This document shows positions 2,922 through 10,322 of a DNA stretch of 10,322 nt, one piece after another. The stretch comes from a virus (taxonomy: Duplodnaviria; Heunggongvirae; Uroviricota; Caudoviricetes). Position 1 is the stretch's first letter. Each line of letters begins with the position of its first letter. The notes under the pieces are model-generated. The model saw only the letters and a list, made by a program, of their open reading frames with translations. It searched no databases and was not told the DNA's origin. The stretch lies in the IMG/VR virus record IMGVR_UViG_2913123054_000006, positions 1 to 10,322 of that record. One strand, written 5' to 3'. The position numbers and the translations under genes were made by a program.

Positions 2922-2949
2922 AGTATACCACCGAGCCTGAAGTGGTAAA
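2922..2949 (-). promoter_or_regulatory. Candidate promoter with extended -10 for the 59-aa minus-strand gene
   Basis: Minus strand reads TTTACC (plus 2944..2949), 16-bp spacer, TGgTATACT (extended -10, plus 2922..2930), about 30 nt upstream of the AAGGAG/GTG start. Confidence 0.4.
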
Positions 2950-3072
2950 AAGACAGGCGCACAACACGAAGGCGCATTTCCGATATCCATAAAGAGTCGG
3001 TCTTGTCTGTTAAATTTAAATGGTGGGAGTGCGCCTCCGGTTGTGAATAACAACACTGCTGTATGTAGTCTT

Positions 3073-3122
3073 GGCGGCATCAGTTTTTCTTGAAGTTCGA
3101 CTGATGTCCGCCCTTTTTAAAG
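3073..3122 (+). terminator. Candidate intrinsic terminator upstream of kilR (tL-like)
   Basis: GGCGGCATCAG (3073..3083) pairs with CTGATGTCCGCC (3101..3112) as an 11-bp stem with one bulged T and a 17-nt loop, followed by CTTTTT (3113..3118). The U-tract is present only on the + strand. Confidence 0.4.
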
Positions 3123-3293
3123 TGAATTTTGTGATGCGGTGAATGCGGCTAAGCGCACGCGGCATAGTTAAAAGTCATGTTAGTCCTTATTGGTTTGGGT
3201 GGGAAAGCCGACTGTAATTGTTAACTGGTTGCAGTCACCTGGAGGCACCAGGCGCCGCATCAACAAAGTTCATTTGTAAAAATGGAGATAATT

Positions 3294-3515
3294 ATGATTG
3301 CACATCACTTCGGAACTGATGAAATACCACGTCAGTGTGTGACTCCTGGTGATTATGTTCTTCATGAAGGCCGGACATATATTGCCTCGGCAAACAATAT
3401 TAAAAAGCGAAAACTTTATATTCGTAACCTGACCACAAAAACATGCATTACTGACTGCATGATTAAAGTCTTCCTCGGTCGTGATGGTTTACCTGTAAAG
3501 GCGGAGTCATGGTGA
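3294..3515 (+). CDS. kilR: KilR, Rac-prophage FtsZ/cell-division inhibitor
   Basis: Track ORF 3282..3515; preferred start ATG 3294 ([73 protein letters not shown], 73 aa) with GGAGAT 4 nt upstream. Sequence and length match my memory of Rac KilR. Confidence 0.8.
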
Positions 3516-3685
3516 TGACTAAGAAAATAAAATGTGCTTACCACCTTTGCGATAAAGAAGTTGAAGAAAGCAAAAGCATTACAAGATCACTTCATTTCAT
3601 GCGTGGAGTTATCCCAACGACGGAAATGAAAAAATATTGTAGTGAAATCTGTGCCGAAAAAGACCAGATGGCACACGAACTTTAA
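3515..3685 (+). CDS. ydaE: YdaE-like small zinc-binding protein (56 aa; below ORF-track cut-off)
   Basis: ATG 3515 overlaps the kilR stop (tgATG). [56 protein letters not shown], stop TAA 3683..3685. Four Cys arranged as C-x4-C ... C-x3-C. Sits between kilR and racC as in Rac. Confidence 0.8.
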   Translation: MTKKIKCAYHLCDKEVEESKSITRSLHFMRGVIPTTEMKKYCSEICAEKDQMAHEL

Positions 3686-3759
3686 TTAACTGAGTATTCG
3701 AAACTGAATTTATGCCAGCAATGGCAGGGATTCGCTCAACCTTAATTAAGGAGAAAAAC

Positions 3760-4035
3760 ATGATTACCAATTATGAAGCCACTGTTGTAACTACCGATGA
3801 CATTGTTCACGAGGTTAATCTGGAAGGAAAGCGTATTGGCTACGTGATTAAAACAGAAAATAAAGAAACACCCTTCACTTTGGTTGATATCGATGGTCCA
3901 TCAGGCAACGTAAAAACACTTGATGAAGGTGTCACAAAAATGTGCCTGGTTCACATCGGAAAGAATCTGCCCGCAGAAAAAAAAGCCGGATTTCTGGCAA
4001 CTCTGATTGCAATGAAATTAAAAGGTGAAATCTGA
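3760..4035 (+). CDS. racC: RacC (Rac-prophage protein of unknown function, 91 aa)
   Basis: Track ORF 3712..4035; preferred start ATG 3760 (MITNYEATVVTTDDIVHEVNLEGKRIGYVIKTENKETPF...) with AAGGAG upstream. Matches recalled RacC sequence and length. Confidence 0.8.
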   Translation: MITNYEATVVTTDDIVHEVNLEGKRIGYVIKTENKETPFTLVDIDGPSGNVKTLDEGVTKMCLVHIGKNLPAEKKAGFLATLIAMKLKGEI

Positions 4036-4042
4036 AAGAAAT

Positions 4043-4063
4043 AGCCTGCGTATGGCGCAGGCT
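4043..4063. other. GC-rich perfect hairpin between racC and recE (8-bp stem AGCCTGCG/CGCAGGCT, loop TATGG)
   Basis: Read directly. No U-tract follows on the + strand; a T-rich stretch follows on the - strand. Possible RNA processing/stability element or a terminator for antisense transcription. Confidence 0.35.
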
Positions 4064-4135
4064 TGAACAGTGTGTATCCGGCAAGATCATTCACTGAACA
4101 AAACGAATTTTAATCTGAGTTGAGGTTAAAAAACA

Positions 4136-7100
4136 ATGAGCACAAAACCACTCTTCCTGTTACGGAAAGCGAAAAAATCATCCGGTGAACCTGACGTCGT
4201 CCTGTGGGCAAGCGACGATTTTGAATCGACCTGTGCCACTCTGGACTACCTGCTCGTTAAGTCAGGTAAAAAACTGAGCAGCTATTTTAAACCTGTTGCC
4301 ACGAATTTTCCTGTCGTTAATGACCTTCCCCCTGAAGGTGAGATCGATTTTACCTGGAGTGAACGCTATCAACTCAGCAAAGACTCCATGACCTGGGAAC
4401 TAAAACCGGGAGCAGCGCCAGACGACGTTCACCATCAGGAGAATGCACCGGAAACCGAAGAACCGGCGGGAGGCCAGGAAGAAAACACACGGGCAGACGC
4501 TCACGGGGATTGCCAGGATTGCGAAATCCCTGTAGCCACACTCAGTCTTACTCATCGTTTCCTTCATCTCTTCTTTTTCGGTCGGATGGAAGATGGAAAA
4601 TACAGCAATCACGCCACGCCGGAACAGCGTAATAACGTCATCCGGATGGAGATGGATACGGAGGATAGCTACCTCCAGAGCCTGCTTACAGCAGTACGTT
4701 CTCATCCTGAACTGGATAAGCTGGCAAACCATCATCTTGGCAGGTTGGCGGAGTCGGTATCCAGAGTGTTTACCCGCACAGAAACCCGTCGCATCAGCCC
4801 TGCTGAATTCGACAAATTCATTTCCACCTGGATGAAAACTGATTATCTGGAGCAGGGATTACTGACAAAAGAGTTGGCGAAGGGAAATTGCGTATCTGAA
4901 ATCAATCGCACCCCGTCGGGCGCAAATGCCGGTGGCGGTATTCTTACCGACCGTGGCGAAGGTTTTGTCCACGATGATGCATCACTGGCGCGCGATGTAG
5001 CCACTGGTGTACTGGCCCGTTCAATGGACGTGGACATCTATAACCTTCATCCGGCACACGCTAAACGCATTGAGGAAATTATCGCTGAAAATAAACCGCC
5101 CTTTTCTGTTTTCCGCGACAAATTCATCACCATGCCTGGCGGGCTGGATTATTCACGCGCCATCGTGGTTGCGTCCGTGAAAGAAGCACCAATTGGGATC
5201 GAGGTCATCCCCGCGCACGTCACTGAATATCTGAACAAAGTACTGACTGAAACCGATCATGCCAACCCTGATCCGGAAATCGTGGATATTGCCTGCGGTC
5301 GCTCCTCTGCCCCGATGCCGCAGCGAGTAACAGAAGAAGGAAAACAGGATGATGAAGAAAAACCGCAACCATCTGGAACAACGGCAGATGAACAGGGAGA
5401 GGCTGAAACAATGGAACCGGACGCAACTGAACATCATCAGGACACGCAGCCGCTGGATGCTCAGTCACAGGTAAATTCTGTTGATGCGAAATATCAGGAA
5501 CTGCGGGCAGAACTCCATGAAGCCCGGAAAAACATTCCATCAAAAAATCCTGTCGATGCCGATAAATTACTTGCTGCATCACGTGGTGAATTTGTTGACG
5601 GAATTAGCGACCCGAACGATCCGAAATGGGTTAAGGGGATCCAGACTCGCGATTCTGTGTACCAGAACCAGCCAGAAACGGAAAAAACCAGCCCGGATGT
5701 GAAACAACCTGAGCCAGTAGTGCAACAGGAACCGGAAATAGTCTGCAATGCCTGCGGTCAGACTGGCGGAGATAACTGCCCTGACTGTGGGGCGGTGACG
5801 GGGGACGCAACATACCAGGAAACATTCGATGAAGAGAATCAGGTTGAAGCTAAGGAAAAAGATCCGGTGGAAATGGAAGGCGCTGAACATCCGCACAATG
5901 AGAATGCTGGCAGCGATCCGCATCGTGATTGCAGTGATGAAACTGGTGAAGCGTCAGCTCCTGTAGCAACTGAAATCATGTGGCCGTCATATTTCGAGCC
6001 TGGCCGCTATGAAAACCTCCCGAACGAGGTTTATCACTCCGCCAACGGAATAAGCAGCACGATGCTGAAGGATGCCCGTATCAGCCTGATGTATTACCAC
6101 GGACGGCACATTGCCGGAACTATTCCGAACGAGGAAAGTGATGTACTGCTGCGTGGGCGGATCATTCACAGCTATGTTCTGGAAACGGATAAATTCGCTG
6201 ATGAATATGCCATTCCGGTACCGGTTCCTGAATATGTGGTTACTACTTCTAGCGAACTGATCGCCATCATTAAAAAACACAATGCCAGTCTGCCAGCACT
6301 GATGACACCAGAGCAGATGAAAGAGTGGATCGAAAGCTACAACAGCACTCTTATACAGCCACTGTCTGTAAGTGCCGGGGCCGAAGAAACAGGCATCCTT
6401 TACGGTTCGCTTCCGGTGGAATTTCGGCGTATTCCTGAGGGGGAAAAACACACAGCATCAGCAATGAAAGCCTGTATTAAAGAATACAACGCAAGCCTCC
6501 CTCCTCTGTTGAAAACCAGTGGAGCACGGGAGCAGCTTCTGGATCAAATTGAAACTGTAGACCCAGAACTGGCAAAAAAAGAACGTGCTAAATCTTTGCC
6601 TTACAACATCAGTGGCACAAAAGAGCAATTAACCGAAATCGCACGGAAAATTCGCCCGGAACTGGTGACACTGGAGGACTGGCAAAAACGCCAGCAAGAA
6701 GAAAATGCCGGGAAAACGTTTATCAGTCCGGATATGTATGAACAGGCAAAAAATATTCACGCGGCACTGCAAAACAATACCGATGCAGCAAGGCTACTTA
6801 ACCACCCGGATCGCAAATCTGAAATCAGCTATTTCGGGTTTGATGAAGAAACCGGGCTGGAAATCAGGGTCCGTCCTGATATCGAAATCCGGCTGCCATA
6901 CGAAAGCATTTGCGCTGACGTGAAGTCAGTCAGCCTCGGTTATGTGCGACAGGAACGACTTAAAGATCGCCTGCACCGTGAAATTATTGAGCGTGATTAT
7001 CACCTCAGCGCCGCAATGTATTGCGATGTGGCAAACCTGGACAAATTTTTCTGGATCTTCGTCAACAAAGATGCTGGCTATCACTGGGTGGCAGTCGTGG

Positions 7101-7267
7101 AAGCCTCGCAGGAACTCCTGGAACTTGGTCGACAGGAATATCGCCGGACGCTACGCCAGATAAACGAAGCCCTGGAGACAAACAACTGGCCAGCACCGAT
7201 TACCGAAAGTTATACCGACGAATTAAACGACTTTGATCTTCGTCGTCTTGAAGCACTGAGCATCTGA
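4136..7267 (+). CDS. recE: RecE-family exodeoxyribonuclease VIII (1043 aa) with a divergent C-terminal PD-(D/E)XK nuclease domain
   Basis: Track ORF with GAGGT SD. N-terminus [26 protein letters not shown]... and the long acidic central region match Rac RecE as I recall it. C-terminal domain carries RecE-like motifs (..RVRPDIEI.., ..ICADVKSVS.., ..[21 protein letters not shown]) but differs from the K-12 C-terminus I remember (..CRCRPDKII.., ..IMDVKTT.., ..[22 protein letters not shown]). Confidence 0.9.
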
Positions 7268-7278
7268 GGAAGGACACA

Positions 7279-8331
7279 ATGAACGAATTAACTCAACAAG
7301 AAAATATTAACTCTAATGTTGCGGTTTTCAGCCCTCAGTCCCTGGCTGCAATTCAGACATTTTCCCAGGTAATGGCTTCCGGCATGGCTACTGTACCGGA
7401 ACACCTCCGGGGAAATCCATCAGACTGCATGGCCATCACCATGCAGGCGATGCAGTGGCAAATGAACCCTTACGCAGTAGCTCAGAAAACTTTCGTTGTG
7501 AATGGTGTGCTCGGATATGAAGCGCAACTGGTTAATGCCGTAATCAGTACTCGTGGGCCGCTAACCGGGCGTATTGAATATGACTGGTTCGGGCCGTGGG
7601 AAAAAATTATCGGGAAATTTGAAATCAGGAAGAGCGACAAAGGGAAAGAATATCGTGTACCTGGCTGGAAGCTGGCCGATGAAAACGGGATCGGTGTTCG
7701 TGTCCAGGCAACACTACGCGGCGAAAGTAAACCACGCGTACTGGAATTACTTCTGGCGCAGGCCAGAACACGTAACTCAACGCTATGGGCCGACGATCCT
7801 CGCCAGCAGCTTGCCTATCTGGCGCTGAAACGCTGGGCGCGCCTTTATTGCCCCGAAGTGATTCTTGGAGTGTACACCAGGGACGAACTGGACGAGCCAC
7901 AGGAAAAAATCATTAATCCGGTTCAGGAACATAAAAACACTTCCGCTTGCCGCGCGGAACGTGAAACAACAATTATTGAGCAGGATGCCGGGGAAAACTG
8001 GATCGATGCTTTCCGTGAACGTATTGAGCAGGCACAAAGCACCGGGGAAACAACAGCACTTCGCCAGGAAGTGGAAGATCATAAAAATACACTTGGCGCT
8101 CTCTATACGGAACTTAAAGGAAAAGTGGTTCAGCGTCATCACCGTCTCAATGCTATTGCCCGTATCGAGAAGATGATAAATGACCTACCTTCTTCAGGTG
8201 ATCCAGAAGCAGAACAAAAATTTACTGCTCTGGAAAATACGCTGAATGCTGCCCGGCCACATCTGGGTGAATTATATGAGGCGTATAAAACGACACTGAC
8301 AGATATGAAACCAGAATATATCGGCTCCTGA
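7279..8331 (+). CDS. Putative phage single-strand annealing protein / recombinase partner of RecE (350 aa); family not assignable without a search, not canonical RecT
   Basis: Track ORF starting 11 nt after the recE stop with GGAAGGA SD, occupying the position recT holds in Rac (recE-recT-lar). Sequence (MNELTQQENINSNVAVFSPQSLAAIQTFSQVMASGMATVPEHLRGNPSDCMAITMQAMQWQMNPYAVAQKTF...) does not match K-12 RecT or lambda Bet as I recall them. Functional call is by synteny only. Confidence 0.5.
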   Translation: MNELTQQENINSNVAVFSPQSLAAIQTFSQVMASGMATVPEHLRGNPSDCMAITMQAMQWQMNPYAVAQKTFVVNGVLGYEAQLVNAVISTRGPLTGRIEYDWFGPWEKIIGKFEIRKSDKGKEYRVPGWKLADENGIGVRVQATLRGESKPRVLELLLAQARTRNSTLWADDPRQQLAYLALKRWARLYCPEVILGVYTRDELDEPQEKIINPVQEHKNTSACRAERETTIIEQDAGENWIDAFRERIEQAQSTGETTALRQEVEDHKNTLGALYTELKGKVVQRHHRLNAIARIEKMINDLPSSGDPEAEQKFTALENTLNAARPHLGELYEAYKTTLTDMKPEYIGS

Positions 8332-8394
8332 TATTGACTTTGGCGGTGTAGCCTCACCGCCATCACAAAATTTTATTTTATGAGAGAAAAGACA

Positions 8395-8589
8395 ATGCGG
8401 TATGAAAAAGTCAAACCATGCCCTTTTTGTGGTTGTCCATCAGTAACGGTGAAAGCCATTTCAGGATATTACCGCGCGAAGTGTAACGGATGCGAATCCC
8501 GAACCGGCTATGGTGGAAGTGAAAAAGAAGCACTCGAACGATGGAATAAACGAACCACTGGAAATAATAATGGAGGTGTTCATGTATAA
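8395..8589 (+). CDS. ralR: Lar/RalR restriction-alleviation protein (64 aa)
   Basis: Track ORF 8380..8589; preferred start ATG 8395 (MRYEKVKPCPFCGCPSVTVKAISGYYRAKCNGCESRTGYGGSEKEALERWNKRTTGNNNGGVHV). CPFCG...C..C zinc-ribbon-like motif. Matches recalled Rac Lar. Confidence 0.85.
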   Translation: MRYEKVKPCPFCGCPSVTVKAISGYYRAKCNGCESRTGYGGSEKEALERWNKRTTGNNNGGVHV

Positions 8590-8770
8590 AATTACCGCCA
8601 CTATTGAAAAGGAAGGTGGCACTCCTACTAACTGGACAAGGTACTCAAAAACAAAATTAACCAAATCAGAATGCAAAAAAATGCTCTCAGGTAAAAAAGA
8701 AGCAGGCGTTTCCAGAGAGCAGAAAGTAAAACTGATAAATTTTAATTGCGAGCAACTTCAGTCCTCGTGA
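8582..8770 (+). CDS. ydaC: YdaC-like small protein (62 aa)
   Basis: Track ORF 8510..8770; preferred start ATG 8582 (MYKITATIEKEGGTPTNWTRYSKTKLTKSECKKMLSGKKEAGVSREQKVKLINFNCEQLQSS) with GGAGGTG SD. Overlaps the lar stop by 8 nt. Position matches ydaC in Rac. Confidence 0.65.
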   Translation: MYKITATIEKEGGTPTNWTRYSKTKLTKSECKKMLSGKKEAGVSREQKVKLINFNCEQLQSS

Positions 8771-8802
8771 ATTGCATTGTATTCAAATTAAAACTTCATA
8801 GC

Positions 8803-8818
8803 TGATTATTAATAATCA
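8803..8818. repeat. Perfect 16-bp palindrome TGATTATTAATAATCA upstream of xis
   Basis: Read directly; its reverse complement is identical. Lies 52 nt upstream of the xis start in the ydaC-xis intergenic region. Function unassigned. Confidence 0.6.
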
Positions 8819-8869
8819 ACATCGGGCGTCAATTTCAGTCTAACATTGGCGCCTGCCAGAGGTGATGCG

Positions 8870-9085
8870 ATGGCACAAGTAATCTTTAATGAAGAGTGGA
8901 TGGTTGAATACGGCCTGATGCTTCGCACTGGTCTGGGGGCCAGACAAATTGAAGCATACCGCCAGAACTGTTGGGTGGAAGGCTTCCACTTCAAACGAGT
9001 ATCTCCTTTAGGGAAGCCAGACAGTAAGCGAGGGATTATCTGGTACAACTATCCAAAGATAAATCAGTTTATCAAAGACTCATGA
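8870..9085 (+). CDS. xisR: Excisionase-like protein (71 aa)
   Basis: Track ORF 8846..9085 begins at TTG; preferred start ATG 8870 ([61 protein letters not shown]...) with GAGGTG 6 nt upstream. Small basic protein directly upstream of, and coupled to, the integrase gene (stop TGA 9083..9085, int ATG 9087). Length matches Rac YdaQ/XisR. Confidence 0.75.
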
Positions 9086-9086
9086 T

Positions 9087-10322
9087 ATGTCTAAATTACC
9101 AACAGGTGTCGAGATTCGAGGTAAATACATTCGCATCTGGTTCATGTTTCGAGGAAAACGATGTCGGGAAACATTGAAAGGCTGGGAGGTTACTAACAGT
9201 AACATTAAAAAGGCCGGGAATTTAAGAGCGTTGATAGTTCATGAAATCAACTCCGGTGAATTTGAGTATTTAAGACGTTTTCCCCAGTCCAGCACTGGGG
9301 CAAAAATGGTGACAACGAGGGTCATAAAAACGTTCGGGGAACTTTGTGATATCTGGACAAAAATTAAAGAGACAGAGTTAACAACAAACACAATGAAGAA
9401 AACGAAATCACAATTAAAAACACTCAGGATAATAATTTGTGAGAGTACCCCTATATCACATATTCGTTATAGCGATATCTTAAACTACCGGAATGAACTG
9501 CTGCATGGAGAAACGCTTTACCTGGATAATCCAAGATCCAACAAAAAAGGAAGAACCGTGCGCACAGTTGATAACTATATAGCCCTGCTCTGTTCGTTGT
9601 TACGTTTTGCGTATCAGTCGGGATTTATATCAACCAAACCATTTGAAGGAGTAAAAAAATTACAGCGAAACAGAATAAAGCCTGATCCGTTATCTAAAAC
9701 AGAATTCAATGCATTAATGGAAAGTGAAAAAGGACAGAGCCAGAACTTGTGGAAATTTGCCGTTTACTCCGGGCTTCGTCACGGGGAACTGGCTGCTCTG
9801 GCGTGGGAGGATGTGGATTTCGAGAAGGGAATTGTGAATGTCAGAAGAAACCTGACGATACTTGATATGTTCGGTCCCCCAAAAACAAATGCGGGGATCC
9901 GGACGGTAACACTACTACAGCCAGCTCTTGAAGCACTGAAGGAGCAATACAAACTGACCGGGCATCATCGCAAAAGCGAAATCACTTTTTATCATCGGGA
10001 GTACGGCAGAACCGAAAAGCAAAAACTGCATTTTGTTTTCATGCCCAGGATGTGTAACGGAAAACAGAAACCTTATTACTCGGTAAGCAGTTTGGGTGCG
10101 AGATGGAATGCAGCAGTAAAACGTGCTGGTATTCGCCGCCGTAATCCGTACCATACGCGACATACTTTTGCCTGCTGGCTGTTGACGGCAGGAGCGAACC
10201 CGGCATTTATAGCCAGCCAGATGGGGCATGAAACTGCGCAGATGGTGTATGAAATTTACGGTATGTGGATTGATGACATGAACGACGAACAGGTAGCTAT
10301 GTTGAATGCGCGGTTATCGTAG
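9087..10322 (+). CDS. intR: Tyrosine-recombinase phage integrase (411 aa) with N-terminal arm-binding domain
   Basis: Track ORF. N-terminus MSKLPTGVEIRGKYIRIWFMFRGKRCRETLKG (arm-type DNA-binding domain). C-terminal catalytic signatures: LRHGELAALAWEDVD (box I Arg), HTRHTFACWLLTAGANP (H-x-x-R), HETAQMVYEIYGMW (His/Tyr). 411 aa as in Rac IntR. Stop TAG is the last codon in the window. Confidence 0.9.
   Translation: MSKLPTGVEIRGKYIRIWFMFRGKRCRETLKGWEVTNSNIKKAGNLRALIVHEINSGEFEYLRRFPQSSTGAKMVTTRVIKTFGELCDIWTKIKETELTTNTMKKTKSQLKTLRIIICESTPISHIRYSDILNYRNELLHGETLYLDNPRSNKKGRTVRTVDNYIALLCSLLRFAYQSGFISTKPFEGVKKLQRNRIKPDPLSKTEFNALMESEKGQSQNLWKFAVYSGLRHGELAALAWEDVDFEKGIVNVRRNLTILDMFGPPKTNAGIRTVTLLQPALEALKEQYKLTGHHRKSEITFYHREYGRTEKQKLHFVFMPRMCNGKQKPYYSVSSLGARWNAAVKRAGIRRRNPYHTRHTFACWLLTAGANPAFIASQMGHETAQMVYEIYGMWIDDMNDEQVAMLNARLS

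Follow-up and report, generated by a model that had tools for sequence, protein, structure and literature searches.

A RecT-family annealase of the Gifsy branch exchanged together with the nuclease domain of RecE in a Rac-type prophage

The window analysed here, that is the whole stretch of 10,322 nucleotides (nt) of the viral record IMGVR_UViG_2913123054_000006, is a Rac-type prophage in which the gene at the recT position (7279..8331, + strand, ATG start) encodes a protein of 350 aa. An earlier note, made from the sequence alone, had pointed out that this gene lies 11 nt after recE and before lar, that its product does not look like canonical RecT, and that a swapped nuclease domain together with a different partner would make a coherent alternative recombination pair. 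Our analysis indicates, with a probability that we would put at about 0.88, that the protein is a RecT-family annealase of the Gifsy branch and the cognate partner of the Gifsy-type nuclease domain that RecE carries at its C-terminus, and that its C-terminal tail most likely docks to this nuclease.

The assignment to the RecT family is carried by profile searches. Pfam RecT (PF03837) matches residues 30–209 with 147.5 bits (cut-off 24, E 4.6e-43) over profile positions 2–190 of 198, K-12 RecT (b1349) matches the same model at positions 1–187, and PHROG 561, 'RecT-like ssDNA annealing protein', matches the window protein with an E of 1.3e-145. In addition, RefSeq holds a 100% identical protein under the name 'RecT family recombinase', whose cluster counts 855 members, and structure prediction, which the earlier note had proposed as a check, gives the core the Redbeta/RecT annealase fold. 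The non-RecT identity entertained in that note is ruled out by these four results, and the protein is instead a known RecT-family variant. Nevertheless, the mismatch to K-12 RecT behind the suggestion was real: K-12 RecT is indeed 269 aa long, as the earlier note states, BLASTP found nothing significant between the two proteins (best E 0.36), and hhalign with a 42-sequence profile of the window protein's close family did not find K-12 RecT (probability 0.3%). As no NCBIfam model matched the window RecT either, we place the protein, on these comparisons, within the PF03837 family but outside the K-12 RecT subgroup. Among the further annealase families named in the earlier note, the Redbeta-type profile did not match (Pfam reports PF03837 alone), and ERF, Sak, Sak4 and Rad52-type families were not reported by Pfam or PHROG at E up to 0.01. 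The likeness to lambda Redbeta is structural only (12% identity), and since Foldseek with the whole predicted model gave no significant match and PDB sequence searches gave no matches, this structural link is real but distant.

The boundaries of the exchanged segment are evident from blastn comparison with K-12 Rac, which shows 94% identity over window positions 2927–4437 and 4856–5965 and 96% identity over 8341–10322, downstream of recT, but no DNA homology over 5966–8340. The left junction is at RecE codon ~610, directly after the acidic linker common to K-12, and the right junction lies 10 nt beyond the stop of the 350-aa gene (right edge of the cassette, 8332..8340, + strand, with K-12 Rac homology back at 8341), so that what has been replaced corresponds exactly to nuclease domain and annealase together. 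The left part of the cassette (5966..7267, + strand) encodes RecE's Gifsy-type PD-(D/E)XK nuclease domain (about residues 611–1043; Pfam DUF3799). Compared with K-12, RecE is near-identical across much of its N-terminal 606 residues and only about 29% identical, over a short stretch, past residue ~610, and the nuclease domain has thus been swapped as the earlier note supposed. The D...D-x-K motif is kept, with D915, D928 and K930, which we take to be the catalytic residues, aligning with K-12 D748, D759 and K761; the left junction thus lies in the region where the K-12 RecE nuclease domain, in the form employed in recombineering and crystallography, is taken to start (roughly residues 588–606).

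The incoming nuclease domain (residues 614–1041) is 51% identical to HK225 RecE 698–1125 and about 45% identical to Gifsy-1 RecE, and the corresponding values for the annealase are 49% and 49%. Divergence from the same donors is therefore about equal for the two halves of the cassette, which is what a cognate pair inherited together should show, and the coherent alternative pair that had been proposed finds its counterpart in a single replaced segment. These comparisons argue that a single cassette brought the nuclease domain and the annealase into the Rac-type prophage, with recombination within recE and a little downstream of recT. The locus offers a clean example from nature of a cassette exchanged at a recE-internal domain boundary, and the joint travel of nuclease domain and annealase fits the known partner specificity of such pairs.

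The annealase itself consists of three parts. An N-terminal alpha/beta core (about residues 15–195; 7321..7863, + strand), with a predicted local distance difference test score (pLDDT) of 80–90 over strands 100–158, is followed by an acidic linker (residues 196–237; 7864..7989, + strand; 24% D+E), which is predicted to be disordered (pLDDT about 30) and is poorly conserved, being variable and gapped in a family alignment (A1). The C-terminal domain, hereafter tail X (residues 238–350; 7990..8328, + strand), is predicted by AlphaFold2 to form helices over residues 238–347 (pLDDT 78–88), and with 29% charged residues and a net charge of -5 it agrees with the helical, charged C-terminal region noted from the sequence. 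Pfam has no family for this domain. When residues 228–350 were searched exhaustively against 1.84 billion representative proteins, only 51 hits came up, every match lying at the extreme C-terminus; all ten tail-carrying hosts scanned (275–756 aa) have a RecT domain, the longer ones resembling RecE–RecT fusion or deletion products. A 364-aa E. coli annealase (P0013, aligned in A1) is a hybrid with a core like the HK225/Gifsy sub-branch and near-identity to the window protein from about residue 190, which indicates recombination at the core/linker junction.

In comparison with other phages, tail X behaves as a separable module. The annealase core of Aeromonas phage pAEv1818 is 30.6% identical to K-12 RecT and has no detectable similarity to the window core, and the last ~115 residues of the same protein match the window tail (33.6%, E 3e-12); its nuclease is Gifsy-type, with 46% identity to the window's and 69% to that of HK225. 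Other phages share the window's core type (45–61% identity) yet carry different tails. Across ten systems, tail classes track nuclease classes: tail class X (window, HK225 and pAEv1818) is partnered by the large Gifsy-type nuclease, tail class Y (TL-2011b, Klebsiella ST11-OXA245phi3.2 and Yersinia 29.18; 42–57% mutual identity) by a compact 272–273-aa nuclease 49–53% identical to K-12 RecE 595–866, and the unique tail of Sodalis phiSG1 by a divergent nuclease. A full Gifsy-type nuclease domain lies directly upstream in 78 of the 80 viral loci with tail X (46–100% identity), and the two exceptions are deletion remnants, namely L052 (4840–6264), in which the RecE N-terminus is joined in frame to the annealase tail, and L063 (5383–6378), where the annealase is 5′-truncated and the nuclease gone. 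Similarly, 18 further loci combine tail X with a K-12/pAEv-type core (67–88% identity to pAEv1818, none to the window core), and the Gifsy-type nuclease is present in 18/18. Tail X with any other nuclease type was found at no locus among those sampled. Within the order nuclease–core–tail, the middle part has hence been swapped with both flanks kept, a pattern which linkage alone is hard-pressed to explain and which points to functional coupling of tail and nuclease.

Whether this coupling amounts to partner choice is a more tentative matter, and we consider it possible, at somewhat less than even odds, that the C-terminal helical domain of the Gifsy-type RecT branch sets which exonuclease the annealase works with. 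Two caveats attach to the tail pattern: the tail loci include many close relatives and few independent events, and K-12 RecT pairs with the K-12-type nuclease without tail Y. A competing explanation, which we regard as less likely, retains a RecT-family annealase whose C-terminal helices serve host coupling, through the C-terminal tail of SSB or through some other factor of host or phage, and attributes the association with the nuclease to shared ancestry and linkage rather than to docking. Such a role would be in line with the C-terminal domain of lambda Redbeta, which binds both lambda Exo and SSB via overlapping sites (PMC11611040), and with a 2026 study according to which extended helical RecT C-termini may offer surfaces for SSB or other factors and predicted RecE contacts are sometimes limited to a short element near the RecT C-terminus (PMC13490951); moreover, the tail-carrying loci are mostly from Enterobacterales, with similar SSB tails. 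However, phages that share the hosts (E. coli, Klebsiella and Yersinia) and the core type carry another tail if their nuclease is of the K-12 type, and the Aeromonas phage keeps tail and Gifsy-type nuclease on another core, so that the tail pattern tracks the nuclease and not the host.

Two further explanations concern the protein as a whole. That the gene has lost its function and has stayed intact by chance in a cryptic prophage appears very improbable: Rac-type prophages are often defective, and fusions of the RecE N-terminus to the tail of the single-strand annealing protein, or truncations of the latter, recur in databases (L052 and L063 described above, as well as proteins P0134 and P0139), but the gene is a full-length open reading frame (ORF) preceded by a good ribosome-binding site, the match reaches at least 95% identity in 161 of the 193 E. 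coli genomes carrying it, homologues from many genera align end to end at 49–85% identity and about 75 positions are invariant across a set of 42 sequences, and the inducible phages HK225 and mEp237 carry the same RecT type. Among these recurrent products are in-frame deletions, in which the RecE N-terminus or some of the nuclease is joined to a C-terminal portion of the annealase, and 5′-truncated annealases without a nuclease, which suggests frequent decay of the recombination module in prophages. Least credible of all is a cytolytic toxin in place of a recombination protein, an idea arising from the name 'enterohemolysin' that NCBI or UniRef give to several homologues of 58–70% identity and to one Klebsiella phage gene. 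This name derives from the haemolytic phenotype of a cloned phage fragment and is not known to rest on a demonstrated toxin. The RecT Pfam domain is present in all homologues so named, the core shows the annealase fold, and the gene always directly follows a RecE-type exonuclease in a phage recombination module; in addition, PMC8093625 places the EHAP1-like group, as a subgroup, within the RecT/Redbeta superfamily.

Returning to the cognate pair of Gifsy-type nuclease and annealase, we infer both an annealing activity of the window protein and a docking role of its tail. RecE would resect the double-strand end 5′ to 3′, and the annealase, tethered via its C-terminal domain, would be loaded on the emerging 3′ strand, coat the 3′ overhang and pair it with complementary single-stranded DNA. 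The C-terminal domain would most likely dock onto its own nuclease, like the lambda Redbeta C-terminal domain with lambda Exo, and may possibly contact host SSB too. A 2023 review called the use of such a C-terminal domain by RecT-type proteins unknown (PMC11611040), and the 2026 study distinguishes three classes of RecT C-termini (compact bundle, disordered and extended bundle) and proposes coupling to exonuclease or SSB (PMC13490951). The predicted model of the window RecT fits the extended helical bundle class. The idea of coupling through the tail is therefore not new, and the evidence from natural chimeras is a small addition to it. If partner choice by the tail holds true, these chimeras would serve as a ready guide to giving annealases new exonuclease partners through tail swaps, and would answer for RecT-type proteins the question posed by the 2023 review on the use of a Redbeta-like C-terminal domain. 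The comparative pattern provides purely genomic, testable support for C-terminal partner specificity of RecT and could guide the design of recombineering pairs.

The window recT is otherwise an ordinary, already catalogued gene: its product, the subgroup of that product and the type of module around it are all known, and the gene in itself is of little weight, the subgroup having been recognised since the early 2000s. Sequence comparison assigns it to the Gifsy-type/EHAP1-like RecT subgroup, and the EHAP1-like group counts as a subgroup in its own right within the RecT/Redbeta superfamily according to PMC8093625. The search for homologues retrieved over 6400, the bulk of them from Enterobacterales; among the matches listed, PF03837 is present in 120 of 120, and their names are 'RecT family recombinase', 'recombinase RecT' or, historically, 'enterohemolysin'. 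The gene is present, always on the chromosome, in 193 of 5426 complete E. coli genomes (about 3.6%). The K-12 recT allele occurs in 1749 of the 5426 and is about nine times commoner, so that the window recT is a minority allele, roughly one in ten. A 100% identical RecT is also encoded in GenBank PP818812.1 (L093, 1–7845), 'Actinobacillus phage vB_Apl-pPE4', attributed to Actinobacillus pleuropneumoniae; as this record carries a Rac-type E. coli early region (ydaT, a DicA-like repressor, Kil and exodeoxyribonuclease VIII), its host attribution looks doubtful.

The closest known relatives are the RecT proteins of the Salmonella Typhimurium prophages Gifsy-1 and Gifsy-2 and of the lambdoid phages HK225 and mEp237, which belong to the same branch. 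Gifsy-1 RecT (STM2633) is 48.9% identical to the window protein (residues 10–349, E 6e-112) and HK225 RecT 48.6%, in both cases over essentially the whole length with the C-terminal helical domain included; the 49%-identical protein of HK225 and mEp237 is annotated as similar to Gifsy prophage RecT. The gene order is the same, recT following a long RecE with a Gifsy-type nuclease domain, whereas sequence divergence between the RecT proteins amounts to about 50% and the window RecE, unlike those of Gifsy and HK225, is chimeric, with the K-12 Rac N-terminal ~610 residues and a Gifsy-type nuclease domain, in a prophage at the Rac/ttcA site. The nearest experimental evidence of function, an indirect one, is that of the Gifsy-1 and Gifsy-2 recET orthologues, which when mutationally activated are reported to suppress the recombination defects of recB mutants (PMC3121763, in a passage citing Figueroa-Bossi 1997 and Lemire 2008).

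K-12 Rac RecT covers the same PF03837 profile positions, occupies the same place between recE and ralR/lar in a Rac-type prophage and presumably has the same annealase role, but it ends in a short acidic tail where the window RecT has a linker and a 110-aa helical domain, and the two are paired with different nuclease-domain types. Lambda Redbeta (Bet) belongs to a different Pfam family and is partnered by lambda Exo, in contrast to the RecE-type nuclease of the window. The epsilon15-like phages (phiV10, TL-2011b and SPN1S) and Yersinia phage vB_YenM_29.18 share the core branch (48–61% identity, residues ~10–223) but have the shorter class Y tail together with the compact nuclease. Within this group, phiV10 is annotated with a single 586-aa RecE–RecT fusion ORF (PhiV10p37; L006, 3116–4876), whereas TL-2011b (L007, 2641–4340) has two overlapping genes whose nuclease and annealase are 97% and 73% identical to those of phiV10, a contrast which may stem from a true fusion or else from a frameshift or a sequencing discrepancy.

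With regard to the setting, recE encodes 1043 aa (stop at 7265–7267; Pfam Exonuc_VIII and the PD-(D/E)XK-like DUF3799; NCBIfam exodeoxyribonuclease VIII equivalog PRK09709), its N-terminal region (4136..5965, + strand) being K-12-like by blastn, Exonuc_VIII and PRK09709 save for a divergent patch. This second patch without DNA homology to K-12 Rac spans 4438–4855 (RecE residues ~101–240), and as residues 131–371 also resemble HK225 RecE 292–525 (about 31% identity), the N-terminal region is itself mosaic. The recE stop ends at 7267, which leaves the 11-nt spacer (7268..7278, + strand; tgaGGAAGGAcacaATG), and the Shine-Dalgarno-like GAGGAAGGA ahead of the 350-aa gene overlaps the recE stop; RNA structure at the recE/recT junction is no greater than in shuffled controls (z +1.09). 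The next gene 3′ of recT encodes the Lar/RalR restriction-alleviation protein (8380..8589; Pfam Lar_restr_allev), followed by excisionase and then tyrosine integrase (Pfam), and in E. coli strain L73 the same gene arrangement adjoins ttcA, the Rac attachment site. The position and the 350-aa length given in the earlier note agree with these ORF calls.

The prophage also differs from K-12 Rac in immunity besides the recombination cassette, as the early region lacks DNA homology over 1177–2012 and 2336–2926; it contains a helix-turn-helix repressor (1459–1866), a Cro-like gene (1154–1408, - strand) and a 123-aa ORF (2348–2719) without a Pfam match. Finally, an 86-aa ORF at 8510–8770 (+ strand) overlaps the end of lar/ralR and corresponds to the DUF1187/rcbA-like gene of L73 and K-12, and it is in this interval that we would expect the ralA antisense small RNA region of K-12.
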